Source: an uncultured Pseudomonadota bacterium
Lineage (GTDB): Bacteria; Pseudomonadota; Alphaproteobacteria; RF32; CAG-239
Direction: 5' to 3'
Length of the DNA stretch: 64,000 nucleotides
Assembly: GCA_949298065.1 (NCBI GenBank)
Contig: CASFUZ010000014.1
Location: 5,395 to 69,394 of the forward strand
Positions 20,185-40,172 of this stretch are shown here, one piece after another; positions within the stretch are counted from its first letter, which is position 1, and each line of letters begins with the position of its first letter. The notes beneath the pieces are model-generated. The model worked only from the letters and a program-made list of their open reading frames with translations, was not told the DNA's origin and did not search any database. The translations under genes and the position numbers were made by a program.

Positions 20185-21588
20185 TCAGAACCTGAAATAA
20201 ATAAACGGATTATATGTATTGCTGGCCAATAACAAGATGCTGAAATATGCAATCACAGCACAAAATGCCGGATTAACAGCCTTGAGCAACACATTTCCCC
20301 AATTCTCATGTTTCAAAACAGCAAAAACTTTCTGGTAAAGCATTACACCAAAGCCACAAGAAACAAAAGCCAACACCGCAACATAAACAAACTCGTTAGA
20401 TAAATATTTGCTGTAAGATTCCATATCAAAAGGCACAAACATTCTGTTCAAATACCCCCATGCAGCACCCAAAGTTTCTGCACGGAAGAAGACCCAAGCC
20501 ACAATAACAATCAGCAACGTATAAATACTCTGCAGCAAGCGAAACCTCAAAAATTTTTCAATCGGAAAAATTCGCTCCAAGACCAAGAAACAGCCATGAA
20601 ACAACCCCCAAATCACAAAGTTCCAACTCGCGCCATGCCACAAACCTGTCAGGAAAAACACAATCATCAAATTCCGATAAGTTTTTAGCGTCCCTTCTCT
20701 GTTTCCGCCCAACGGAATATACAAATACTCCTTAAACCAAGTGGAAAGAGAAATATGCCACCGCCGCCAAAAATCTTTAATAGAAGTTGCGGTATAAGGA
20801 TAATTAAAGTTCTCATGAATCTGGAAGCCAAACATCTTCCCTAAACCGATTGCCATATCCGAATATCCTGAAAAATCAAAATAGATTTGGAACGTATAGG
20901 CAATAATGCCAATCCATGCGGCAGGTGTGCTCAAATCATTAAGCCCCAAAGCAAAAATCTCATCGGCAGTTTTGGCCATAATATTAGCGATAATAACCTT
21001 TTTAGCCAAGCCTTGTAAAAAACGAACAGCCCCCTCATTAAACAAAGGCAAAGTAACCTGTCGTTTATCAATCTGACTGGCTATATCATAATATTTCAAA
21101 ATCGGACCGGCAATCAACTGCGGGAAGAAAGAGATAAACAAGCCCATTTTGATAATATTTCTCTGCGGCTCGCAAACTTTGCGATAAATATCCACCAAAT
21201 AAGAAATAGATTGGAAAGTGTAAAAAGAAATACCAATCGGCAAAGGCAAATGCTTAACCTCGACCTGCAGACCAAAGATTGCATTCACATTTTCCGTAAA
21301 GAAACCGGTATATTTGAAAACACCCAATAAGGCTAAGTTTACAAACACAGCCCAAAACAATGCTCTTTTGCGTTTATGTTCTTCTGCCGCACCGATTTTC
21401 AAACCACAAAAATAGTTTATGATAATAGATAAAATCATCACAAAAACATAAACCGGCTCGCCCCAAGCATAAAAGAACAAACTCGCAACCAACAAAATCA
21501 CATTGCGATATTGCTCTTTAGCAAGAAAATATAACGTAAAAACAACAGGCAAAAACAGCCATAAAAATATTAAGGAACTAAAGACCAC
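20185..21588 (-). CDS. MBOAT-family membrane-bound O-acyltransferase (AlgI/DltB-like), paralog 1
   Basis: 467 aa, polytopic, conserved MBOAT His region (LWHGASWNFVIWG). Paralog of 29433-30839 (same N-terminus pattern, identical C-terminus NTYNPFIYFRF). Confidence 0.85.
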   Translation of the reverse strand: MVFSSLIFLWLFLPVVFTLYFLAKEQYRNVILLVASLFFYAWGEPVYVFVMILSIIINYFCGLKIGAAEEHKRKRALFWAVFVNLALLGVFKYTGFFTENVNAIFGLQVEVKHLPLPIGISFYTFQSISYLVDIYRKVCEPQRNIIKMGLFISFFPQLIAGPILKYYDIASQIDKRQVTLPLFNEGAVRFLQGLAKKVIIANIMAKTADEIFALGLNDLSTPAAWIGIIAYTFQIYFDFSGYSDMAIGLGKMFGFQIHENFNYPYTATSIKDFWRRWHISLSTWFKEYLYIPLGGNREGTLKTYRNLMIVFFLTGLWHGASWNFVIWGLFHGCFLVLERIFPIEKFLRFRLLQSIYTLLIVIVAWVFFRAETLGAAWGYLNRMFVPFDMESYSKYLSNEFVYVAVLAFVSCGFGVMLYQKVFAVLKHENWGNVLLKAVNPAFCAVIAYFSILLLASNTYNPFIYFRF

Positions 21589-25911: not shown

Positions 25912-27213
25912 TCATAAATTTTTATATTTTTCCATCAATGCCTTTTGTCTCAAATTTTGTTTTTGTGTTTGAGCAAAGCCCATATACTTACACAAATGAT
26001 CATTTTTCAATATACAAACAGCCATTCTTTTCCATGAGGGAATATCAATGGTAGATTTAATATCATCAGTATGATCCGGAGTTCCCAAAAACACAATTTT
26101 TTCTTTACTGCTTTTATAATTGCTCTTACCATTATGCCGAATAGGATAATTGCAAGCCTCCAATTCCTTAATAGCAGCATCGTCAACCACACCACCTTTT
26201 TTCCACCAAAACCTAATAGAGGTTTTAAACTTTTCAATATAATTTCGCCTCATTGAATCAGGTAAAGTTGCCAACAAAAACTTCACATAGCTACGCCAAG
26301 TATGCCCCGGCGGCAATTCAATCTTACGAGCACCCAAAGCATGAGAATTTCCATAAATTGCACCGAAATTTGCGCCCTGCACCCGAGACACGATGCGAAC
26401 CCATGTTGAGGGTTCCAAAACCCTATATAGATTAAGACTATCCTTGGCCGTTTCATGATAAGGACTGGCAACCCGCATCTGATGAATAGAAAGCCCTGCT
26501 TTCCAAAACAAATCATAAATCCGATTATAATCATAATCAAACTTACCATTGGCTATCCACACATCCTTTGTTGTCCAATCATACATTGGATAAGCGTTCC
26601 ACCAATTTTCCCCCATTTTCGTTGTCCACTGATTCCCTTTCAGAATAGTTTTACGGTCATTAGCATAAGCCCGATACCGATTAAGGGATTCATCGGCCCG
26701 AATACCGAGCAAACAAATTGTCTTCCCTTTCTTTTGTCTGGAATACCAATCACCAAACTCAGCATACAAATCTTCTTGTACCATTTTATAACGATAAAAA
26801 TCAAAAGGATTATTATCCATATTAATAATGTATGGCATTTTGGGCATAGGCCGCACCCACAAATTTTTCTGATCCGGATCCCAAGTATACCAATACATCT
26901 GATAATTACTAACTGCGCAACGAGACCCCATCGGCAAACAAACCCAATAAGGCTCAATATCGCTCATATTATTTTCAAACATTCTGGTAACAAAATCCGT
27001 TGTTGTCTGATATTGAGCCTCAAAATCCTGATGAAAAACACCAATTTTCTTGGTAATATTATTCCTTCGTTTGTAGCTCAAAACCATATTTAACAACAAA
27101 CCACTATCTTTGCCACCGGAAAAAGAAACATAAATATTATCAAAATTATCAAAAATAAATTTCAATCTTTCCTGCAAAGCCTCATAAACATTTTTTTCCA
27201 AATATTTCTTCAT
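25912..27213 (-). CDS. PAPS-reductase-like PP-loop ATP pyrophosphatase with C-terminal DUF3440-like region (IbrA/YbdN-like)
   Basis: PP-loop SFSGGKDSG. Start taken at MKKYLEK (ATG 27211-27213), preceded by a strong AGGAGG RBS. That ATG overlaps the upstream gene's TGA stop as ATGA. Confidence 0.8.
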   Translation of the reverse strand: MKKYLEKNVYEALQERLKFIFDNFDNIYVSFSGGKDSGLLLNMVLSYKRRNNITKKIGVFHQDFEAQYQTTTDFVTRMFENNMSDIEPYWVCLPMGSRCAVSNYQMYWYTWDPDQKNLWVRPMPKMPYIINMDNNPFDFYRYKMVQEDLYAEFGDWYSRQKKGKTICLLGIRADESLNRYRAYANDRKTILKGNQWTTKMGENWWNAYPMYDWTTKDVWIANGKFDYDYNRIYDLFWKAGLSIHQMRVASPYHETAKDSLNLYRVLEPSTWVRIVSRVQGANFGAIYGNSHALGARKIELPPGHTWRSYVKFLLATLPDSMRRNYIEKFKTSIRFWWKKGGVVDDAAIKELEACNYPIRHNGKSNYKSSKEKIVFLGTPDHTDDIKSTIDIPSWKRMAVCILKNDHLCKYMGFAQTQKQNLRQKALMEKYKNL

Positions 27214-28460
27214 AATGTCAAGGCCTCCTCCTTTGAAATCATACGACAAACATTAGACAAGACATTTCTTTTACGACTCAAATTTTGCCTGATAAGTTTA
27301 TCCAATCCCGTATTAATCCAAAGATTATAAACATTGATACTTTGTCCCGAATAAGACTGATATACATTATGCATACACTGCAACTTGCTTTTATAATCAA
27401 ATGTTTGAGAAAAATAAATAATATTATTGCAATTACACAAATCCAAACCTCTGGAATCCACCCCATAAGTAGAAAACATAATATTTATTCTTTGCCCAAA
27501 AAGCTTAACTGCTTTTTTCTTATTACTACGCCCGGACAAAATAACATACTTCCCTCTTTGGAGTAAACCACTTTCCACAAAAAAACTAATTTCATCAAGA
27601 TATTTAAGATATATAATAACTTTTTCATTACGCTCTAGAATTTCGTTAATTAAGCGAAACAAACCCTCTACCTTATTTTTAGCAAGAGTATAAATATGCT
27701 GAAAACGCTGCACGACCTCCATAAATACCACCTGCTCTTTATCTTGAAGAAAAGCATTTTTCTCTTCCTGATAACTATCCTCTTCTTTTTGTGTTAAATC
27801 AAAAAAAAGATCAATATAATTAAGATTAAAACGGTCTTCCAAATCACACTCAAAAATAAAAGGGCGCATTTGCTCAATCAAAATTTTTTCATTTTCCGGC
27901 TTTGACCATTTCCGAACTGTTCCATCATCATAAGGAGACAGATAAGTATTAAGAAACTGGCTCTCAGACATATTAAGCACAGAAGGATGCATAAACTCAA
28001 TCTGAGAATACAAATCTACCAACCCCTGTGTTAATGGCAAACTACTTAAAATCAGACGATAATCAAACATATTACGCATCAGCAGCAAACGCTTAGTCCG
28101 TCCGGCCTCAGTATTTTTGATTGTAATACTCTCATCTACCACACAAAAAACCCTGTATTTCTCAGCCAAAGAATAAAGCTGCAGATAATGCAAATCAGAA
28201 CAAGAAATATTTTCAATGGAAAAAAAATAAATTTCTTTTTTCAAGTCAATCAAATTTTCATCAATAATATCAGCATACCCCTTCCACGCTAAAAAAGAAG
28301 AAGGAGCAATCCACACCACAACATCTATCTCACCTTGTTTGTCTTTAACTAAATCCAGAGCCGCCTTAATCTTCTTGGAGCCCATCTTCATAAACAAAGC
28401 ACCCGCTTTAAGTCTTGATAATTTGGCGCTGGAAGATTCAAAATTGCAATCTTTATCCAT
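27210..28460 (-). CDS. minimal SNF2-family helicase-like protein with degenerate ATPase motifs (probable pseudo-ATPase)
   Basis: SNF2 motif Ia VVVWIAPSSFLAWKGY; motif II VFCVVDESITIKN (DExH-KN); motif III RLILSSLPLTQGLVDLYSQIEFMHPSVL; motifs IV-VI in the C-lobe (IMFSTYGVDSRGLDL...YQSYSGQSINVYNLW). Walker A replaced by KMGSKKI; Arg fingers missing. Confidence 0.7.
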   Translation of the reverse strand: MDKDCNFESSSAKLSRLKAGALFMKMGSKKIKAALDLVKDKQGEIDVVVWIAPSSFLAWKGYADIIDENLIDLKKEIYFFSIENISCSDLHYLQLYSLAEKYRVFCVVDESITIKNTEAGRTKRLLLMRNMFDYRLILSSLPLTQGLVDLYSQIEFMHPSVLNMSESQFLNTYLSPYDDGTVRKWSKPENEKILIEQMRPFIFECDLEDRFNLNYIDLFFDLTQKEEDSYQEEKNAFLQDKEQVVFMEVVQRFQHIYTLAKNKVEGLFRLINEILERNEKVIIYLKYLDEISFFVESGLLQRGKYVILSGRSNKKKAVKLFGQRINIMFSTYGVDSRGLDLCNCNNIIYFSQTFDYKSKLQCMHNVYQSYSGQSINVYNLWINTGLDKLIRQNLSRKRNVLSNVCRMISKEEALTL

Positions 28461-29338: not shown

Positions 29339-29439
29339 CTTCTTCTGAAAATCACGATTAATGCGGAAAGTTGTAGGCACTTAGGATTTTGAAAATTTTA
29401 AACGCCCAAATTTCCCATTAAGCGTGATTTTCCTAGAAG
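29339..29439. repeat. imperfect about 24-bp inverted repeat with about 52-bp spacer, each arm preceded by direct repeat ccaaatttcccatt
   Basis: cttcttctgaaaatcacgattaatg versus reverse complement cttctaggaaaatcacgcttaatg; lies between convergent HD and MBOAT-2 genes (overlaps MBOAT-2 stop). Confidence 0.7.
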
Positions 29440-30839
29440 CGGAAATAAATAAACGGATTATACGTTGACGATGCAAGAGATATGGTAGACCAATAAAAAA
29501 GGATAAAAATCCAAATATTAATGATACTACGCAATACCTTATGCTCATATTTTACGTAAAGCATATTTTTAAATATCGGTGCAGAACAAATAATTCCCAA
29601 AACCAACATTAAAATAAACTTATTATTGATACCAAAATCTACTTCTGTCAGAACTTCCGGTTGATTTAGCATAAACATCTGTTGTAAATAATCCCAAGCA
29701 TAATCCATATTAATGGAGCGAAAAGCCACCAGTCCCAAAACAAAGACAAGCATCGCATAGACATGCCTCAATGCTGATATATACTTACTTTCATCTTTAG
29801 GCTTGTGCCAACCGACAAACTTTTCAAAACAAATAAAGATAGCGTTCCAAACACCCCATAATACGAATGTCCAACTTGCTCCATGCCAAACACCGGTAAC
29901 TAAAAAGACCACAAACAAATTGACATAAGTACGCACCGGCGAAACCCTGTTTCCGCCAAGGGGAATATATAAATATTGTTTAAACCACGTTGCCAAAGAG
30001 ATATGCCATCTCTGCCAAAACTCAGAAATAGATTTGGAAATATAGGGATAATTAAAGTTTTCTAAAAACCGAAAGCCAAACATCCGCCCCAAACCAATAG
30101 CCATATCCGAATATCCAGAGAAGTCAAAATAAAGCTGAATAGCATAAGCAATAATTCCGAGCCAAGCATAGCCAAAGCCCAAAGTTTCTGGCTGTTGCAT
30201 AAAGATTCTATCAACCACAACAGCCAAAGTATTAGCTATCAAAACTTTTTTAGCCAAGCCGATAATAAAGCGTTTTAAGCCAAAAGAAACATCGGCAAAA
30301 GTAACTTTTCTGTCATCAATTTGCTCGCAAACATCATGATACTTAACAATCGGTCCGGCAACAAGCTGCGGAAAAAGAACAATATAAAGAGCCAATTTGT
30401 TAATATCGTCCTGAGCCTCAACTTCCCGACGATAAACATCTATCAAATAAGATATGGCTTGAAAGGTATAAAAAGAAATACCAATCGGCATAACCACATC
30501 AATAAAGTCAAGATTAAGCTGTAAAACCGCATTAACATTATCAACGATAAAATTAAAATACTTAAAATAAACCAGGAAACCCAAATCAACCAAAATCGTA
30601 GCTGCCATCGCCAATTTGCGTTTTTTATCATCCAAACATCTATCTACGATTCTGGCCCCCACATAAGTAACAACGATTGTCATAATCATAATTGCCAAAT
30701 ATCTGGGCTCGCCCCAAGCATAAAAGATAATGCTCGCCGCTAACAAGACATAATTTCTGATATCTTTTTTAGAGAGCAAATAAATGCTCATCACCACCGG
30801 CATAAACACAAACAAAAATGTCATAGAACTAAAAAGCAT
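29433..30839 (-). CDS. MBOAT-family membrane-bound O-acyltransferase (AlgI/DltB-like), paralog 2
   Basis: 468 aa; conserved His region VWHGASWTFVLWG; same C-terminus as paralog 1. Confidence 0.85.
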   Translation of the reverse strand: MLFSSMTFLFVFMPVVMSIYLLSKKDIRNYVLLAASIIFYAWGEPRYLAIMIMTIVVTYVGARIVDRCLDDKKRKLAMAATILVDLGFLVYFKYFNFIVDNVNAVLQLNLDFIDVVMPIGISFYTFQAISYLIDVYRREVEAQDDINKLALYIVLFPQLVAGPIVKYHDVCEQIDDRKVTFADVSFGLKRFIIGLAKKVLIANTLAVVVDRIFMQQPETLGFGYAWLGIIAYAIQLYFDFSGYSDMAIGLGRMFGFRFLENFNYPYISKSISEFWQRWHISLATWFKQYLYIPLGGNRVSPVRTYVNLFVVFLVTGVWHGASWTFVLWGVWNAIFICFEKFVGWHKPKDESKYISALRHVYAMLVFVLGLVAFRSINMDYAWDYLQQMFMLNQPEVLTEVDFGINNKFILMLVLGIICSAPIFKNMLYVKYEHKVLRSIINIWIFILFYWSTISLASSTYNPFIYFRF

Positions 30840-30850
30840 TTATTTTTCCT

Positions 30851-32176
30851 TTACTCTTCCGGAGCCTCAATTTTCATCAGACGATTAAGAAAACGCTCGC
30901 CGGTTGCAATAACCAACATATTTGGCGCAAAATTTTCAATATCTTCAGCCATATAGGGAATATCAAAATTTTTTCCATAACCGACATAAATATGCTGCAT
31001 TTCTTTAAAGCTTTCAGCCACATACCAATTCATCCGCAAGAACTGGCTATCTGCGTAAAAAATGGCCTTCAGTTTATTTGCGGGATTATCACTCACAAAG
31101 TCAAAAGTCTCAATCCGCAACTTTTTGTTTACGAACTCATGTTTTACAGCCGTCGTTTGCCTTTTTAAAGAAAAGACATCATAAGTCATATCTTCTTTAG
31201 GGAAGGTTGTTTTTGCATCAATTCCCAAAGCATTGGCAATATCCTCATCGGCACTAAACTGCGGTTCTATATTAAAATCAGCTTCTTTTAAAATCTTAAG
31301 CGACGGAAAATCTTTTTTAAGCATCTTCATCATCTCAAGATATGCAACATAAGCCCCACGATGGTTCCAATGTGTTCCTGTTTTATAATAAAGCAAATGG
31401 TCTTTTTTAGCCTTTTCCAAAGCCTTAATTGGATAAACCACCGGAATATCCGTCTCATTTTTCAAAAATTCATAAGCTTGTTCAATTTTAGCTTGTTCAT
31501 TGACTTTGACATAGCCATCGGGATAAAATTCACCATAAACACGTTCTTTATCCGGCACCAACATCAAATAGAGTTTAATATTTCTTTTTGCCAACCAAGA
31601 CTGCAGATTTTCCAAACGATATTTAATTTTAGAAAGTTCCTCATCATCAAACAAATACTTGTTACGGAACATATCTTCGGAGTTCCACCTTTTGGTAAAC
31701 AACCAATTTTCTTTGCCGGCCATGGCATCAAAATTCTTCAACTCATTATTAATTAGCAAATCAATCATCTTGCTGTTTTTAATAAACTGACGCCGACCAA
31801 AGAAACGATCATTAAACCAGTTTTCAAAATCCTTACCAAAATTATAATTTACTAACCCTGTTTCATCATCAATAAGCGGCACATATTTAGCCAAAGACCT
31901 ATTTTCCTGTACCGAAATTTCATCACGGTTAATATGCAAAATCGGCACAAACATAAAAGCCACAACACAAACCACAAAAACAATATCTATACGCGAATTA
32001 TTTTCAACAATCTTAAAACGCGCCAAATATTGCACCAACTTATAGCAAATCATATAAGAAAGTGTGATGATGATGATAAAAAGTTTATAATCAAAACCGA
32101 CATCTGTCAGATAAAGCCGATGTCCCCACAAGGTAAGCAACAGCGTCAGGATAATACTTATAATTAAACGTCGCAT
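30851..32176 (-). CDS. AlgJ/AlgX-like polysaccharide O-acetylation protein, paralog 2
   Basis: N-terminal TM helices; shares LVPDKERVYGEF and YKTGTHWNHRGAYVAY motifs with 19058-20182. Confidence 0.6.
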   Translation of the reverse strand: MRRLIISIILTLLLTLWGHRLYLTDVGFDYKLFIIIITLSYMICYKLVQYLARFKIVENNSRIDIVFVVCVVAFMFVPILHINRDEISVQENRSLAKYVPLIDDETGLVNYNFGKDFENWFNDRFFGRRQFIKNSKMIDLLINNELKNFDAMAGKENWLFTKRWNSEDMFRNKYLFDDEELSKIKYRLENLQSWLAKRNIKLYLMLVPDKERVYGEFYPDGYVKVNEQAKIEQAYEFLKNETDIPVVYPIKALEKAKKDHLLYYKTGTHWNHRGAYVAYLEMMKMLKKDFPSLKILKEADFNIEPQFSADEDIANALGIDAKTTFPKEDMTYDVFSLKRQTTAVKHEFVNKKLRIETFDFVSDNPANKLKAIFYADSQFLRMNWYVAESFKEMQHIYVGYGKNFDIPYMAEDIENFAPNMLVIATGERFLNRLMKIEAPEE

Positions 32177-33216: not shown

Positions 33217-34815
33217 TCATAAAAAGTGTGTTTCTTTTATTGTTCTTTCAAGAGCTTTTTCTAAAGAAAACTTTGGATTATATCCCAATAATTTTTTAGC
33301 TTTAGATATATTTGCCACCTTTCTTTTAACATGAACCGCACTGGAGGACAAAAACTCTACTTCAATTTTCTTATCCAAAATTTTTTCCAAAAGCTTAAGC
33401 AATTTTCCAAGACAAACGGCTTTACCACTCGCTAAATTGAAGACATCAAATTTTTTCGGATATTTCCAAGCTTTTTCTATACCATCAACAACATCATCAA
33501 TATAAACAAAATCTCTTTTATCTTTTTCGCCATAATGTAGCTGAACTTTTGTATGATTTCGTACCGAATTTAATAAATTTCCGATAACACCGTCCGAAAA
33601 TTGCCCTGGTCCGAACACATTAAAAAAGCGCAGGCAAATTGCCGATAAACCATATAACTTGGTATAAGTATATATTAATGTTTCAGCAGCAGATTTAACG
33701 GCACCTTCCAAAGAGCACGGTCTTGAAGCACTACATTTTTCACTAAAAGTCCAACGTTTATCTTTGCCGTACACAGCTGCCGATGATCCCAAAATCAACT
33801 TTTTAGCCTTAAACTTCCGCATATTTTCCAAAACATTAAATATGCCCTCAAGTTCTTCTTTAACATCTGTTGTTTTTTGCGTAGCTCTCACCTTTTCTTG
33901 AAAATAAAAAACAACATCCGGCTTATTTTCTAAAAAAACTTTTTCCAAAAACTCATTATTAAAAACATTTCCTTGATAAAACTTATAATTTTTATTGCTT
34001 TCGTTTTGGGCAAGATTTTGTTTTTTCAAACCGGCATCAAAAACACCATCAAAATCATCAATAACCACAACCCTTGAATTTAACTGCAACATTCTTTCTG
34101 TGACGGCAGCACCAACAAAACCACAACCGCCGACAATCAAAACTTTTGGATTATGCGGATAAATAGCAAAATCAGGAGATGGACAACGAGCATTTTTTAC
34201 AAAAAGATTCTTTACATCATAACCATTTTTCCAAAGTACATAAGTAAAACTCAGCTGATCTCTTTTACTAAAATCTCTAACAAAGCTCCACCACATATCC
34301 ATAGTTTTCATAATTTCGGGTTTAAGATGTTTCCGATAAAGAACATTTGTTTCAGCGAGCCCCCATTTTTTAGGAAATCCGTCATCTTCAAGCAATTTTT
34401 CTTGGTGTCTGATAACATCAACATCATCATACCCAAGCTTTTCAACTTCTGCAAATTCATCATAAATACAATCTCGGCAAAAATGTACCGGCACTAAAAT
34501 ATCCGTTTTTCTTTTTAAAATTTGTTCAAAAATATACGAGCTTAAAATATTGACATTACTATCACACCATATACTCTGCTCATATTCAGGAAAAAGCTTG
34601 TGTGGATTAATTTTATGATAACGACTATTTCTGGTATTATCTCTTTCTTGAAAAGCCAGTGGTCTTATTTTCCAAACACCAACATTTTTTTGAGCCACCA
34701 AATTTTCATCATCGGTAAAACACACATAATCCCAATTTTCATCAACATACACAGGCTGTCTAAGTGTATCATAATTACCGGTTAAACAAGTATAAACAAC
34801 CCCAAGCTGAACCAT
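33217..34815 (-). CDS. two-domain protein: N-terminal putative glycosyltransferase-like domain (DUF616/TOD1-like; uncertain) fused to C-terminal NAD-dependent epimerase/dehydratase (extended SDR)
   Basis: N-terminus VYTCLTGNYD...CFTDD. From about residue 230, Rossmann motif VLIVGGCGFVGAAV and catalytic YxxxK-like AAVYGKDK/YTYTKLYG. Confidence 0.65.
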   Translation of the reverse strand: MVQLGVVYTCLTGNYDTLRQPVYVDENWDYVCFTDDENLVAQKNVGVWKIRPLAFQERDNTRNSRYHKINPHKLFPEYEQSIWCDSNVNILSSYIFEQILKRKTDILVPVHFCRDCIYDEFAEVEKLGYDDVDVIRHQEKLLEDDGFPKKWGLAETNVLYRKHLKPEIMKTMDMWWSFVRDFSKRDQLSFTYVLWKNGYDVKNLFVKNARCPSPDFAIYPHNPKVLIVGGCGFVGAAVTERMLQLNSRVVVIDDFDGVFDAGLKKQNLAQNESNKNYKFYQGNVFNNEFLEKVFLENKPDVVFYFQEKVRATQKTTDVKEELEGIFNVLENMRKFKAKKLILGSSAAVYGKDKRWTFSEKCSASRPCSLEGAVKSAAETLIYTYTKLYGLSAICLRFFNVFGPGQFSDGVIGNLLNSVRNHTKVQLHYGEKDKRDFVYIDDVVDGIEKAWKYPKKFDVFNLASGKAVCLGKLLKLLEKILDKKIEVEFLSSSAVHVKRKVANISKAKKLLGYNPKFSLEKALERTIKETHFL

Positions 34816-37135: not shown

Positions 37136-37900
37136 CTAGTTGAGCCAAAATTCTATCGTAGACACCACTCTAACTCTTTTATTGATTTGCGAGCTTTCAG
37201 ATTCTCCGGCTATGGCTAAAAGCGGCTGAATAGAAAATACGCCTTGAGAAGCGCGGCGAATTTTGCCAACTTCGCTACCCGAACTTTTCGCAAACTCCAA
37301 AGCGGCCTGACGTGCATTTCTCGTTGCTTCTTCAAGCATTTGAGGTTTAATATCATTAAGACGCGTAAAAATATAAGACACGGGAGAACCATAAGTTTGG
37401 CTGTCAAAAACCACACCTTTGGCAACAAGCTCCCCGCTTGAACGAAGCGTTTGTTCAATCAAATCAACTTTTTCACTACGCAACGTAACTGTCTGGTTTA
37501 AGATATAACGAGCGGCAAAATCCTTATCCCGATAAGGATTCGTCATCAGGTCGTTGGTCTCAATCCGTCCTTCTGAAATTTCGTTTGCATCAAAACCTTT
37601 TTCAATCAGATAATTTTTAATAAGAGAAAGATTGCTTGCCATATTTTTTTGCACGGTCAACAAATCATTACCTGTTGCCACAAATTTGATGTTCCAGATT
37701 CCCAAATCCGCCTTAACATCCATTTCTGCCAGGCCTTTGACCGTAACAAAATTATCTTTAAGCTTGGCCTGATAGTAATAATATCCGGGAAAGAAACCGC
37801 CCAAAGCAATACCCAAAGCAAGAATAACAAAGGCCCAAAGTTTTTTGCCACAACATTTTGAAGTTTCGCAAGCATTTTCAGACATATCATCACTCCTCAA
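37136..37900 (-). CDS. SIMPL/DUF541-domain protein (BP26/OMP28-like periplasmic protein)
   Basis: N-terminal TM/signal; SIMPL-like pattern FVTVKGLAEMDVKAD...TVTLRS...EATRNARQAALEFAK...VVSTIEF. Confidence 0.65.
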   Translation of the reverse strand: MRSDDMSENACETSKCCGKKLWAFVILALGIALGGFFPGYYYYQAKLKDNFVTVKGLAEMDVKADLGIWNIKFVATGNDLLTVQKNMASNLSLIKNYLIEKGFDANEISEGRIETNDLMTNPYRDKDFAARYILNQTVTLRSEKVDLIEQTLRSSGELVAKGVVFDSQTYGSPVSYIFTRLNDIKPQMLEEATRNARQAALEFAKSSGSEVGKIRRASQGVFSIQPLLAIAGESESSQINKRVRVVSTIEFWLN

Positions 37901-37980
37901 AAATCATTTAGAAAAGCATGGTAGCACAAAGCTTAAGCAAGTCAACAATTAGAGAACAGATTTAAATAGGAATAAAATCC

Positions 37981-38076
37981 TTGACAAAGAGATTTTTTTA
38001 TGCTAAAAGCAAAATATCACTTACCAGAAGTGTATCTGCCAAACAGCTTTGTTACCAAACAAAGCTGTTTTTTTTG
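37981..38076 (+). ncRNA. candidate small RNA or leader: consensus -35 TTGACA followed about 55 nt later by a strong intrinsic terminator with no upstream + strand gene
   Basis: Terminator aaacagctttgtt-accaa-acaaagctgttt plus T8 at 38041-38076; TTGACA at 37981-37986; weak -10. Confidence 0.3.
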
Positions 38077-38105
38077 TTTTAAACAACAACTTGGAGAAAA
38101 AGAAT

Positions 38106-39068
38106 ATGTCTGAAACCTTAGAAATCGGCAGCATCAAACCGCGTATTCGTTATGAAGGAGACGGAAGCACCAAAGAGTTCAACTTTGCTTTTACCATCTT
38201 TGACGAAAGCGACATTGATGTTTATGCAGATGAAATTTTATTATCTGACGGCTACACCGTTCAACAAGAAGAGCAAGGCGGAAAAGTAATTTTCAACACC
38301 GCCCCCGCAAGCGGTATAATCATCACAATTTATCGTAATTTAGAGCTCAAACGCACCACCAATTTTCAGGAGGTCGGACCTTTTCGCACATCAAAAGTCA
38401 ATCTGGAATTTGATTATCAATTAGCCTGTATGGAACAACTGCAAGACTTAATCAGTCGCACCGTGACTTTTCCCCCTTATTCCCCCACGCAACTAAATGT
38501 AACTCTCCCCATGCCTATACCGGGGAAAGCCATTATCTGGAATTCGGAAGGCAACAGTTTACAAAATTCCAGTATAGAAATAGAAGAATTAAGTCATTAC
38601 TATAGTGATATTGTACAAAAAGCAACTGAAGTAGCCACCAACACCGGCAAAACACTAACAGCTAACACACAGGCACAAGAAGCAGCGCAACAGGCAATAC
38701 AAAAGGCACAATTTGTCCAAAACAGACCTGAAACAATATATACCCAACAAAAAACGTTGGAAACAAGCGAAGGAGATATAACCATCTCCATAGAGCCCGG
38801 AATTTTTGAATATGCCGTAACGCCTTCTGGCAACATCAACTTCAGTTTTGATTTTAGTCAATGCAACACCGACATGATAATCAGCTTTTCCTTACTTTTA
38901 AAAGAAACAGCAGCTGATTACACATATTCATACAACTTTGAAGATAACGAGAATTTTCAGTGGCTTGATAATTTACCGGCCATCCCGAGCGGTAGTTATT
39001 TAATGACTTTCCGCCGCTACCCCGATGGGCATATTTTAGGTGTAGCCAATGGAGTAATAGCATCATGA
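38106..39068 (+). CDS. phage T7-like tail-fibre N-terminal-domain protein
   Basis: Start at MSETLE. N-terminus matches T7 gp17 N-domain pattern (Y..DGS...FN..F ... I.I.R...R.T.F......R...LN....Q). Confidence 0.55.
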   Translation: MSETLEIGSIKPRIRYEGDGSTKEFNFAFTIFDESDIDVYADEILLSDGYTVQQEEQGGKVIFNTAPASGIIITIYRNLELKRTTNFQEVGPFRTSKVNLEFDYQLACMEQLQDLISRTVTFPPYSPTQLNVTLPMPIPGKAIIWNSEGNSLQNSSIEIEELSHYYSDIVQKATEVATNTGKTLTANTQAQEAAQQAIQKAQFVQNRPETIYTQQKTLETSEGDITISIEPGIFEYAVTPSGNINFSFDFSQCNTDMIISFSLLLKETAADYTYSYNFEDNENFQWLDNLPAIPSGSYLMTFRRYPDGHILGVANGVIAS

Positions 39069-39715
39069 CAATAATGGGAAAATCAAACACCTTAGGAGGG
39101 AGTGTCTGCGCCTACTTTCCTGGAACAATTCTATTTGACGGAAAAAACGGAGCATCTGCAAATATTTCACTAAAAAAAGGAACATATTACATCCGAGCCC
39201 AAGGTGCCGGAGCCGGCGGCGGTAACAGCGGAGCCTATGGTATCGGCGGCGGTGGCGGTAGTGGTGCTGGATTTGACGGTAATATTTACATAAATAACAA
39301 TCAAGAAAACATAATCTGTTATGCCGGCATTGCCGAACAAGCCAACCGAAAAAATGGTGAAGCCAGCTATATAGGCGATTTAATAACTTTAGGCGGAGGT
39401 TTTGTTGGTGGCTCAGATAATGGCAAAGCAGGATCTGGCGGAACTTTAACCATATCTAACAATATAAACATCATCTCATACGACATTAAATCAAATGGCA
39501 ACCCCGGAAATCCTACAATAAACGGTTCAGCAACAAAAGCCGGTGGAAATTCCGTCATCACCAACACTGGTGGCGGAATATACAAAGGAACTTTCGCAGA
39601 ACGCTGCGCTACTGCTCCGGGAGCAGGAGGTGCTGGAGGCAAACAATGGGATTTAAACGGCGGCTATGGCATGTATGGCGAAGTTAAAATTCAATATCTA
39701 AAACCCAAACCATAA
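39065..39715 (+). CDS. glycine-rich repeat protein (phage tail-fibre distal segment-like)
   Basis: Overlaps upstream stop by 4 bp; long GGxGG/GAGAGGGNSG tracts; ends GGYGMYGEVKIQY. Confidence 0.45.
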   Translation: MTIMGKSNTLGGSVCAYFPGTILFDGKNGASANISLKKGTYYIRAQGAGAGGGNSGAYGIGGGGGSGAGFDGNIYINNNQENIICYAGIAEQANRKNGEASYIGDLITLGGGFVGGSDNGKAGSGGTLTISNNINIISYDIKSNGNPGNPTINGSATKAGGNSVITNTGGGIYKGTFAERCATAPGAGGAGGKQWDLNGGYGMYGEVKIQYLKPKP

Positions 39716-39730
39716 ATTAAGGAGAAAAAA

Positions 39731-40132
39731 ATGTATGCAAAACTTATCAATGGGATATTAACACCCGCGCCATCAAACTTAAGCAAAAATAATACCTTTT
39801 ACCAAAACTACAATCGGGATACAAATGCCGAAATGCTCTTAACTGATGGCTACAAACCTGTGGAAGAAACGCTCCCCCCAACAGATATGAAACAACCTAG
39901 GAAATACTATGTTGAAAATGAAGACAAAATAATTTCAGTCTATACAGAATCTTACGTTGAACCCGATTATCGTGAAAAACGCGCTTCCGAATATCCTGAT
40001 TTCAGAGAATATTTAGATGCCATGGTTAAAATTAACTCCGGCTCTGAAGAACTAATTGCAGAGGGAAAAACGCAACTACAAAATTACTACGACCTCTGCC
40101 TTGAAGTCAAAGCAAAATACCCCAAAGAATAA
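39731..40132 (+). CDS. hypothetical protein (possible tail-fibre assembly/chaperone; speculative)
   Basis: 133-aa ORF with RBS GGAGAAAAAA, immediately after the Gly-rich ORF. Confidence 0.4.
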   Translation: MYAKLINGILTPAPSNLSKNNTFYQNYNRDTNAEMLLTDGYKPVEETLPPTDMKQPRKYYVENEDKIISVYTESYVEPDYREKRASEYPDFREYLDAMVKINSGSEELIAEGKTQLQNYYDLCLEVKAKYPKE

Positions 40133-40138
40133 CAAAAC

Positions 40139-40172
40139 GGCCGGAGCAAAAACTCCGGCCTGCTTCTTTATT
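40139..40172. terminator. bidirectional intrinsic terminator
   Basis: ggccggag-caaaaa-ctccggcc hairpin with flanking A/T runs. Confidence 0.7.

Follow-up and report, generated by a model that had tools for sequence, protein, structure and literature searches.

Genes at the locus and their genomic settings

The subject of this study is a cassette of three genes, designated F1, F2, and F3, in a 64,000-nt stretch (henceforth the window) of contig CASFUZ010000014.1 (positions 5,395 to 69,394, forward strand; assembly GCA_949298065.1) of an uncultured alphaproteobacterium (RF32; CAG-239). F1 encodes a tail fibre, F2 a glycine-rich protein, and F3 a small accessory protein (Table 1), and the cassette is read here as the probable receptor-binding module of a phage-derived particle. 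It lies between a SIMPL gene and a convergent galE gene, which is followed by ugd, in surroundings rich in polysaccharide and O-acyltransferase genes. An earlier reading of the sequence (the original prediction) had described an orphan T7-like tail-fibre module in a polysaccharide locus; the three open reading frames (ORFs), with their overlap and gap, were found where it had placed them, and Pfam searches bore out the flanking genes. The reading frame of F1 also contains a longer, TTG-started ORF beginning at 38049. When window ORFs of at least 50 amino acids (aa) were compared with podovirus gene sets of related loci, no further phage genes were found in the 64 kb (the search returned only F1 and one ABC ATPase), and 24 window proteins searched against Pfam had housekeeping or polysaccharide functions, so that the description as an orphan held in the parts checked.

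Table 1 Features of the fibre cassette, its leader, and its immediate flanks (positions in the window)
Feature	Position	Strand	Details
SIMPL gene	37136-37900	-	divergent from F1, left flank
Promoter signature TAGGAATAAAATCCTTGAC	37967-37985	+	inverted repeat AGGAA..TTCCT overlapping the -35 hexamer
Predicted sigma-70-type promoter	37981-37986 (-35); 38004-38009 (-10)	+	TTGACA, 17-nt spacer, TAAAAG; read from the sequence
Leader element	38018-38036	+	hairpin CACTT-ACCAG-AAGTG (38018-38032) overlapping GTGTATC (38030-38036)
Predicted intrinsic terminator	38041-38081	+	13-bp stem, ACCA loop, T-run; ends 25 nt before the F1 start codon
F1, tail fibre	38106-39068	+	320 aa, counted from ATG
F2, glycine-rich protein	39065-39715	+	216 aa; 4-bp overlap with F1
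F3, small accessory protein	39731-40132	+	133 aa; 15-nt gap after F2
Bidirectional terminator hairpin GGCCGGAG-CAAAAA-CTCCGGCC	40139-40160		between the F3 stop and the convergent galE stop

Homologues of F1 numbered 46 in a large protein set and occupied 51 loci among species-representative genomes, nearly all of them labelled Alphaproteobacteria or "proteobacterium" (one was labelled Christensenella). The loci, cited below by L numbers where needed, came mostly from gut metagenome-assembled genomes (MAGs), Ca. Scatocola among them; more distant members belong to Rhodospirillales and Magnetospirillum. About 40 of them are orphans with an intact cassette, and these occur in three chromosomal settings: context (i), as in the window, with SIMPL on one side of F1-F2-F3 and galE-ugd on the other; context (ii), in which asd/DUF1796 precede an F1-F2-F3-i-spanin-o-spanin array followed by DivIC-M23-bactofilin-SmpB; and context (iii), in which F1 and an F3-like protein of about 100 aa are convergent with large glycosyltransferase clusters. 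L046 is an orphan cassette adjoining glycosyltransferase genes. The last two genes of context (ii) (L004, 12031-12406; also in L015 and L020-L023) form an overlapping pair 3' of the fibre cassette and encode a 68-aa protein with an N-terminal transmembrane segment, ending in ..RPNA..LL.LM.NN.L, and a lipoprotein homologous to a gene of phage contig L076; by these features the pair resembles an i-spanin/o-spanin pair travelling with the fibre genes.

Predicted promoter and terminator leader upstream of F1

Conservation of the 205-nt spacer that precedes F1 far exceeds that of coding synonymous sites. Because the SIMPL gene is divergent, transcripts of F1 must start within this spacer and pass its terminator. 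In order of position, the spacer carries an inverted-repeat signature, which is a candidate operator or activator site, a predicted sigma-70-type promoter, of which both hexamers and their spacing are conserved across orthologous loci with saturated synonymous sites, a leader element about 20-25 nt after the -10 hexamer, and the predicted intrinsic terminator, after which follow a ribosome-binding site and the F1 ATG. The leader element in the form ATCACTT-N5-AAGTGTATCTG occurs once in the window; its shorter core, CACTT-N5-AAGTGTATC, was present in all context-(i) loci, and leaders of the other two settings, as well as those of the main head-tail clusters described below, also contain a G[TC][GC]TATC block.

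In its general form, TAGGAW-N5-TCCTTGAC, the signature occurs exactly once in the window and, in 37 loci from all three contexts, as a single copy located about 115-180 nt upstream of F1, and it was found nowhere else in the approximately 1.3 Mb of locus DNA examined. The order in these 37 loci is the same, with the signature over the -35 hexamer, then the G[TC][GC]TATC block, and then one or two intrinsic terminators; the terminator stems vary in sequence between lineages with compensatory changes, and many loci have two in tandem. Terminator-like hairpins (cut-off dG <= -10) were present within 110 nt upstream of F1 in 34/39 orphan loci compared with 12/180 control genes having comparable intergenic space (Fisher's p = 2e-24; the loci are phylogenetically related and hence not independent). 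No known RNA family was matched by the leader in Rfam (gathering and E-value modes), and a scan of viral contigs for the promoter variant specific to the window found none.

Structure and relatives of the fibre proteins

The Pfam check named in the original prediction came out partly as expected: residues 10-119 of F1 matched PF03906 (Phage_T7_tail) at an E-value of 1.2e-4, with a score of 22.2 bits that lies below the gathering score of 25.2 bits, and some close homologues have a precomputed PF03906 match. The claim of a T7-type tail-fibre module itself stood, as some 20 tail-fibre PHROGs were matched by F1 in addition to PHROG 1640 ("tail protein"; E = 1.2e-19), and its model matched gp17-type folds. 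In tblastn, podophage matches covered the N-terminal half only (Vibrio phages; "tail fiber protein" of Methylophilales phage MEP301). The AlphaFold model of F1 (mean predicted local distance difference test score, pLDDT, 76.8) consists of a beta-sandwich, a helix, a 47-residue helix, and a C-terminal beta-sandwich, which we divide into a gp17-type tail anchor (residues ~1-158), a long helix forming a coiled-coil stalk (159-205), and a beta-sandwich tip (214-319). The best matches of this model in the PDB were the N-terminal domains of fibres within podovirus portal-tail complexes (LME-1, Carin-1, Kp7, P-SCSP1u, PhiM1, and T7 gp17), with Foldseek E-values of 6e-9 for 9efk_AE (LME-1), 7e-6 for 8ck1_B, 4e-4 for 7ey9_b, and 1.6e-3 for 7boz_a, the last two being T7 gp17 structures. 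F1 thus has in common with T7 gp17 the beta-sandwich-plus-helix anchor, the layout of anchor, coiled coil, and variable tip, and, in relatives, the position of its gene after the nozzle gene; it differs in its length (320 aa vs 553 aa in T7), in lying outside a phage genome, and in that its tip would be completed by a separate glycine-rich protein. Of 25 invariant positions in the F1 family alignment, 24 fall within the first 155 residues, and the coiled coil and tip are variable. Judged from the alignment, a pattern of this kind is what a functional receptor-binding protein that still docks on a conserved partner would show.

F2 is rich in glycines that are invariant across its homologues. 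It had no match in Pfam (E <= 1) or PHROG scans, nor in tblastn against GenBank phages. The structure check suggested for it in the original prediction gave a model with a pLDDT of 88.8, which shows a jelly-roll and polyglycine fold resembling the cyanophage Pam3 fibre (7ypx; E = 1e-6; 25% identity) and Bxb1 tail-tip proteins (9d93) and, weakly, the glycine-rich domains of ALK/LTK (7ls0; E ~0.03-0.1). The alignments with these structures extend over the full length of F2 (template modelling score ~0.5); F2 differs from such tip domains in being a free-standing protein of 216 aa without a Pfam or PHROG match. A phage homologue of F2 gave a weak match to ALK_LTK_GRD (PF12810; E = 5.6e-4), below the cut-off. 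F2 is probably a distal fibre tip or an adhesin.

In T7-like viral contigs, homologues of F2 (35-47% identity) directly follow an F1-like fibre gene with the same 4-bp overlap; the IMG/VR contigs with this gene order are about 40 kb in length with 36-47% GC. In L076, tubular protein B is followed by three internal virion proteins, then by the F1-like and F2-like genes (4-bp overlap), an 863-aa fusion containing an F3-like N-terminal part, endolysin, and spanins. An HNH endonuclease gene (L076, 15094-15693) was observed between the i-spanin-like and o-spanin-like genes of this contig. F3-like sequence follows F2 in phage contigs L072, L076, L077, L079, and L081: residues ~1-90 of F3 are common to large phage proteins, and L072, like L076, carries the 863-aa fusion. 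The C-terminal 55 aa of F3 constitute a widespread small-protein domain (263 representative protein clusters), and in Methylophilales phage MEP402 the gene for one such protein lies between genes annotated as tail fibres. In PHROG, F3 matched only families of unknown function (9114, 2687, 1787), and no known family of tail-fibre assembly chaperones was matched in Pfam or PHROG; the position of F3 among fibre genes is only suggestive of the assembly role proposed in the original prediction. On the strength of these relatives, the whole cassette is to be regarded as a phage module.

Head-tail gene cluster in related genomes

A scan of IMG/VR for the signature led to L088/L089, in which signature, GTATATC block, and terminator stand ahead of a compact cluster encoding a 61-aa protein, portal, Bbp19-like protein, scaffold, 285-aa capsid, tubular protein A, tubular protein B (635 aa), two small proteins, the large terminase subunit (TerL), lysozyme, and small membrane proteins, with no fibre gene between tubular B and TerL. 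The same signature precedes the portal gene of the fibre-less clusters L088/L174, L094, and L178. Other signature matches in viral contigs (5/7) included four without leader-like sequence, about chance expectation. The fifth, L086 (3659-3681; IMG/VR, 36% GC), has a similar promoter-plus-hairpin layout, in which the signature is accompanied by an extended -10 and, before a gene of unknown type, by a long perfect hairpin with T-run.

An alignment scan of metagenomes with tubular B yielded more than 496 relatives, many of them on contigs of 0.1-1.2 Mb (up to 1.19 Mb), and exact-sequence look-ups led to contigs of up to 1.89 Mb, with several MAG copies labelled "Alphaproteobacteria bacterium." The conserved order comprises a divergent repressor of S24 or helix-turn-helix type, p126, p134, a small protein, portal, Bbp19-like, scaffold, major capsid protein (MCP), c7, tubular A, tubular B, c5, in many clusters F1 (~675 aa), p96, TerL, c14, lysozyme, and a holin that matches PF11351 (GTA_holin_3TM), i.e., head, tail, and lysis genes within about 10.5 kb. 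The portal is of T7 type (PF12236), the scaffold is Phage_T7_Capsid-like, and the tubular proteins correspond to PHROG 394/376. A link to BaGTA of Bartonella through the Pfam name Phage_Bbp19 was considered and dropped, as "bbp" refers to genes of Bordetella phage BPP-1; the BaGTA literature consulted offered no comparison of gene content. An F1 homologue directly follows tubular B in at least 52 related clusters; the window itself has no adjoining tubular A or B. In 20 cluster loci F1 was undetected by tblastn, and at least three of these (L110, L112, L120) have an in-cluster fibre according to protein clustering. Genuinely fibre-less loci were found mainly in neighbouring clades of the tubular-B tree (neighbour-joining with midpoint root; locus gene calls from a crude ORF picker), together with signature-bearing and gut-derived contigs (L088, L092, L094, L095; L098, L099, L106; L163, L169, L170). 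A 340-aa ORF near the L174 cluster was considered as its fibre gene and rejected.

Two further properties of the cluster concern its regulation and its abundance. The proteins p126 and p134 are always encoded by the first two genes after the repressor; p126 has the invariant pattern W..W...C...D...H...G..P..W and p134 a conserved GF(K/R)HC...DP (L088, 1-798; L094, 4740-5561; L140, 4910-5709). By position and conservation, both are candidate regulators of the signature promoter. In L169 and L170, from human gut metagenomes, the cluster is rearranged, with a p126-p134-p96-TerL-lysozyme block before the portal-to-tubular-B block. Tubular B of L169 was found on 417 contigs, one of them of 1.89 Mb, which marks this element as a very frequent one in gut metagenomes.

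No integrase or replication genes and no att-like features were present in five inspected loci (L140, L109, L174, L178, L179). Host genes adjoin the inspected clusters directly: the flanks are cobD and an EAL protein plus M16 peptidase in L140, T2SS-E/F, ftsJ, and rsmB and lnt plus RNase H in L174, pgm and fabD-fabG-acpP-fabF in L179, and purC-NADK and nhaA-icd in L109, L112, and L116 (L124 shows the purC-NADK side only). Within the purC-NADK/nhaA-icd group, MCP was 76% identical, compared with 77% for purC and 76% for icd, and tubular B 67.5%, compared with 66% for NADK and 69% for nhaA. The cluster looks domesticated; it occupies fixed chromosomal sites and diverges at the rate of its housekeeping neighbours.

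Linkage of cassette and cluster

Cassette and cluster are found together in a region of human-gut origin. Orphan locus L040, from a MAG contig of 118 kb, carries a homologue of the cluster-type S24 repressor and the start of p126 at 7-9 kb from F1, and L177/L178 represent the same region from another assembly. In L178, the cluster side (lysozyme, TerL, two small proteins, tubular B, tubular A, MCP, scaffold, Bbp19-like, portal, p124, p122) continues into the S24 repressor, then lnt, rpmJ, a gene for a 141-aa protein, lon, a ribbon-helix-helix protein gene, and rpsU, and then the F3-like gene and F1, followed by DegT and GT2 polysaccharide genes. The cluster and the F1 cassette are 7 kb apart, with the essential host genes lnt, rpmJ, lon, and rpsU between them, and F1 of L178 is 43% identical to the anchor of the window. 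Exactly two copies of the signature are present in the 20.6 kb of L177/L178, one ahead of the portal gene and the other ahead of F1. They have an identical N5 spacer and an identical stretch from -35 to about +12 (TCCTTGACATT-N10-TGTGATATAGTG), and each copy is followed by a TAT-containing hairpin with T-run and then by a second terminator. Since the two loci of L178 have identical promoter stretches, the fibre promoter is to be seen as a duplicate of the late promoter of the cluster. Additionally, homologues of the o-spanin-like lipoprotein of context (ii) lie at or just beyond the 3' end of the main clusters L174 and L106. A strong intrinsic terminator is also located about 20-40 nt upstream of the in-cluster F1 of L049, L050, L052, and L053, which suggests that read-through control of the fibre gene is older than its relocation. 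Two MAGs contain two orphan cassettes each (JAZQUH01 with L026 and L034; JAFXFY01 with L033 and L036), all consisting of F1 and an F3-like gene with the promoter and leader architecture, which suggests several alternative fibres for one particle.

The same region bears on the possibility, raised in the original prediction, that the cassette is the edge of an intact prophage reaching beyond the window. A partner cluster does exist in relatives, but at about 10.5 kb it lacks integrase and replication genes, and essential host genes lie between it and the fibre genes; of the terms used in the original prediction, "domesticated" is the one to retain. Cluster and cassette might instead form a mobile satellite or an unusual temperate phage that moves itself with a helper. 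The CI/LexA-like repressor and the compactness of the cluster fit this explanation, IMG/VR calls such clusters viral, and capsid-forming satellites of similar size are known. What speaks against it is the lack of integrase, replication, or att-like features in the five inspected loci, the occupation of the same site (purC-NADK; nhaA-icd) in at least three diverged genomes with a divergence matching that of the flanks, and the separation of the L178 fibre gene from the cluster by essential genes. We consider a satellite or temperate phage unlikely.

A further explanation is that the host encodes a fibre for incoming T7-like phages, either as a decoy in defence or as a host-range module incorporated into their progeny. 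F2 and F3 share 32-47% identity with proteins from free T7-like phages of the gut, which are 40 kb in size and match in GC content, and a terminator-gated promoter could await a phage-borne antiterminator. The F1 anchor, however, is only 26% identical to those phages, compared with 35-49% to fibres inside chromosomal clusters; the signature is absent from all phage loci examined except the chromosomal-type cluster L088/L089; and it is duplicated at the resident cluster. A fibre made for visiting phages is, on these grounds, very improbable. The gut cassettes look mosaic, with an anchor from the chromosomal element and a tip, F2, and F3 akin to those of free T7-like gut phages.

Conservation and selection

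Among the context-(i) orthologues (n = 7), all ORFs were intact at saturated synonymous sites (proportion of synonymous differences, pS, 0.6-0.75). The rate of nonsynonymous change (dN) was 0.098 for the F1 anchor (N-terminal half), 0.090 for galE, and 0.086 for SIMPL, and the C-terminal half of F1 (tip), F2, and F3 evolved about 2.5 times faster than the anchor; as synonymous divergence (dS) is saturated, dN/dS ratios are only indicative. By these measures, the cassette is apparently a kept one and not a decaying remnant.

A prophage remnant was among the explanations offered in the original prediction; an inert remnant would be the right-hand end of an old T7-like prophage left behind by deletion, functionless and as yet undecayed. 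The phage derivation of the cassette agrees with it, as do the spanin pair retained in context (ii), as at the end of a prophage, and the varying chromosomal position of the cassette between lineages. It is largely refuted by the selection and regulatory data: the cassette is intact in about 40 loci across saturated synonymous divergence, its anchor evolves like the housekeeping neighbours, its promoter, leader, and terminator architecture is strongly conserved and unique to it, and the same predicted promoter stands before a co-resident particle cluster. A passive remnant is hence scarcely credible.

The original prediction had alternatively considered a domesticated receptor-binding protein, tailocin or adhesin-like. 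Such an explanation would make the cassette a stand-alone surface protein, acting as an adhesin or as a tailocin-like killing fibre without capsid or tail. The absence of particle genes from the 64 kb and the adjoining surface-polysaccharide genes fit such a role. Evidence to the contrary comes from several sides: no signal-peptide-like N-terminus was seen by eye in F1, F2, or F3; the tail-attachment domain is the best conserved part of F1, and the 25 invariant positions are common to in-cluster fibres; the cassette is linked, by its leader terminators and by the late promoter that it shares, to a programme in which particles are released by lysis; and the partner cluster encodes capsid, portal, and terminase, and is therefore not a tailocin. 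We give this explanation very little weight.

Interpretation and proposed mechanism

Taken as a whole, the gene content, the leader, and the link in relatives point to F1-F2-F3 as the module by which a phage-derived particle of podovirus type binds its receptor, the remaining particle genes being expected elsewhere on the chromosome as part of a multi-locus element resembling a gene transfer agent (GTA), and we assign this reading a probability of roughly 0.65. The relatives lack replication and integration functions, co-diverge with the host, and have genes spread over more than one locus, as GTAs do. GTA status is put forward as a hypothesis, its chief rival for the complete system being a satellite or a defective phage of unusual kind.

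Several points weigh against this reading. The head-tail cluster is absent within 38 kb on one side and 24 kb on the other side of the cassette, and the connection between cassette and cluster is drawn from relatives whose F1 anchor is 38-43% identical. The element is known here from its genes. No internal virion (ejection) proteins were recognisable and no small terminase was identified in the cluster, which could therefore be non-functional or work differently. Neither p126 nor p134 matched a known regulator in Pfam, PHROG, or PDB sequences (the last searched, for p126, with a profile). Finally, a tubular-B profile search of a set of 5.8 billion proteins returned only L076-type phage contigs of at most 49 kb; this search missed the 635-aa chromosomal class altogether and is therefore uninformative on the partner cluster.

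In the mechanism that we propose for the multi-locus element, the S24 (LexA/CI-like) repressor would keep the element silent, including p126 and p134. On induction, p126 and p134 would switch on the signature promoters and enable RNA polymerase to pass the leader terminators, in the manner of Q-type antitermination, so that under this common switch the fibre cassette and the particle genes would be made together; switch-on of the element is probably by antitermination. Trimers of F1 would dock at the junction of tubular A and B via their N-terminal domain, F2 would cap the F1 tip and bind cell-surface polysaccharide made by the genes flanking the cassette, and F3 may help assembly or docking, before lysis frees the particles.

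More tentatively, and with somewhat less than even confidence, the loci may represent a large undescribed family of podovirus-derived GTAs in Alphaproteobacteria, from marine Rhodospirillales-like genomes to lineages of the human and animal gut. In the gut clades the fibre gene would have moved out of the main cluster to become a swappable cassette beside polysaccharide loci, wired to the element by a duplicated, terminator-gated late promoter, a candidate antiterminator (p126/p134), and an SOS-type S24 repressor.

Further observations in the window

Three other features of the window were recorded. On the reverse strand (25912-28460), an overlapping gene pair encodes a PAPS-reductase/DUF3440 protein (445 aa) and an SNF2-related helicase-like protein (416 aa); it is kept in a related species (L001, 1-1712) and may be a DNA-modification or defence pair. 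Two MBOAT O-acyltransferases, one of them adjoining an AlgX/DHHW SGNH-type protein, are encoded at 20185-21588, 29433-30839, and 30851-32176, which suggests two polysaccharide O-acylation systems close to the cassette. Lastly, a single 532-aa ORF (33217-34815, reverse strand) fuses a TOD1/MUCI70 glycosyltransferase-like domain to an NAD-dependent epimerase/dehydratase.

Comparison with known systems and implications

The closest parallel in layout is RcGTA of Rhodobacter capsulatus, whose fibre and head-spike genes lie outside the main cluster beside exopolysaccharide (EPS)/capsule genes and whose receptor is the capsule (PMC5026251). Both systems have a head-tail cluster apart from the receptor-binding genes (rcc00171 and rcc01079/80 in RcGTA), receptor-binding genes that stand next to polysaccharide synthesis genes (EPS/capsule in RcGTA) and evolve faster than the core, vertical inheritance in Alphaproteobacteria, and a holin of family PF11351. 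RcGTA differs in being siphovirus-like with HK97-type genes g1-g15, in contrast to the T7-type portal, tubular A/B, and gp17-type anchor found here; apart from the holin family, no homology to the g1-g15 structural genes of RcGTA (Rhodogtaviriformidae) was seen. FpGTA of Faecalibacterium, described in 2026 as the first element of a GTA-like kind from the human gut microbiome and as the first to have a podovirus-like morphology (PMC12946183), is likened here by description: it likewise comes from the gut and has a podovirus-like morphology, a main operon of about 10.5 kb, and a second structural/lysis operon, but its host belongs to the Firmicutes. Packaging and transfer have been demonstrated for RcGTA, and capsid-DNA nanopore evidence of packaging exists for FpGTA, whereas the present element is known from genes alone.

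With regard to regulation, BrrG of BaGTA, a Q21-like protein, acts through promoter binding, an attenuating leader, a -10-like element, and terminator bypass (bioRxiv 10.1101/2024.11.20.624540), and GafZ of CcGTA through antitermination (PMC11150451). The predicted leader described above is similar to these units and to lambda PR'-tR' in its strong promoter, protein-binding-like element, block after the -10 hexamer, and terminator(s) before late genes, and in that one unit is used at two dispersed loci. It differs in that no homologue of Q, BrrG, or GafZ was identified and in that the conserved block is not a clear NANNNT in every locus.

The observation of an orphan tail-fibre module is confirmed, and its original interpretation holds in part; the most fitting label for the cassette is that of a receptor-binding module detached from a multi-locus GTA-like element, in a new variant of podovirus type. 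The literature searched, the coverage of which was incomplete, contained no account of an alphaproteobacterial GTA of this type. The known alphaproteobacterial GTAs belong to two gene families, RcGTA-like and BaGTA, which have shaped ideas of viral domestication for gene exchange. For annotation, the case is a warning that a tail-fibre gene which looks like an "orphan" may belong to a dispersed system, and the shared promoter signature offers a simple way to list all loci of the element in any genome. If the reading is correct, the element would represent a third and much more widespread family of alphaproteobacterial GTAs, including those of common human-gut Alphaproteobacteria, and the location of fibre genes beside polysaccharide genes would mean that binding specificity and the receptor of kin are inherited together.

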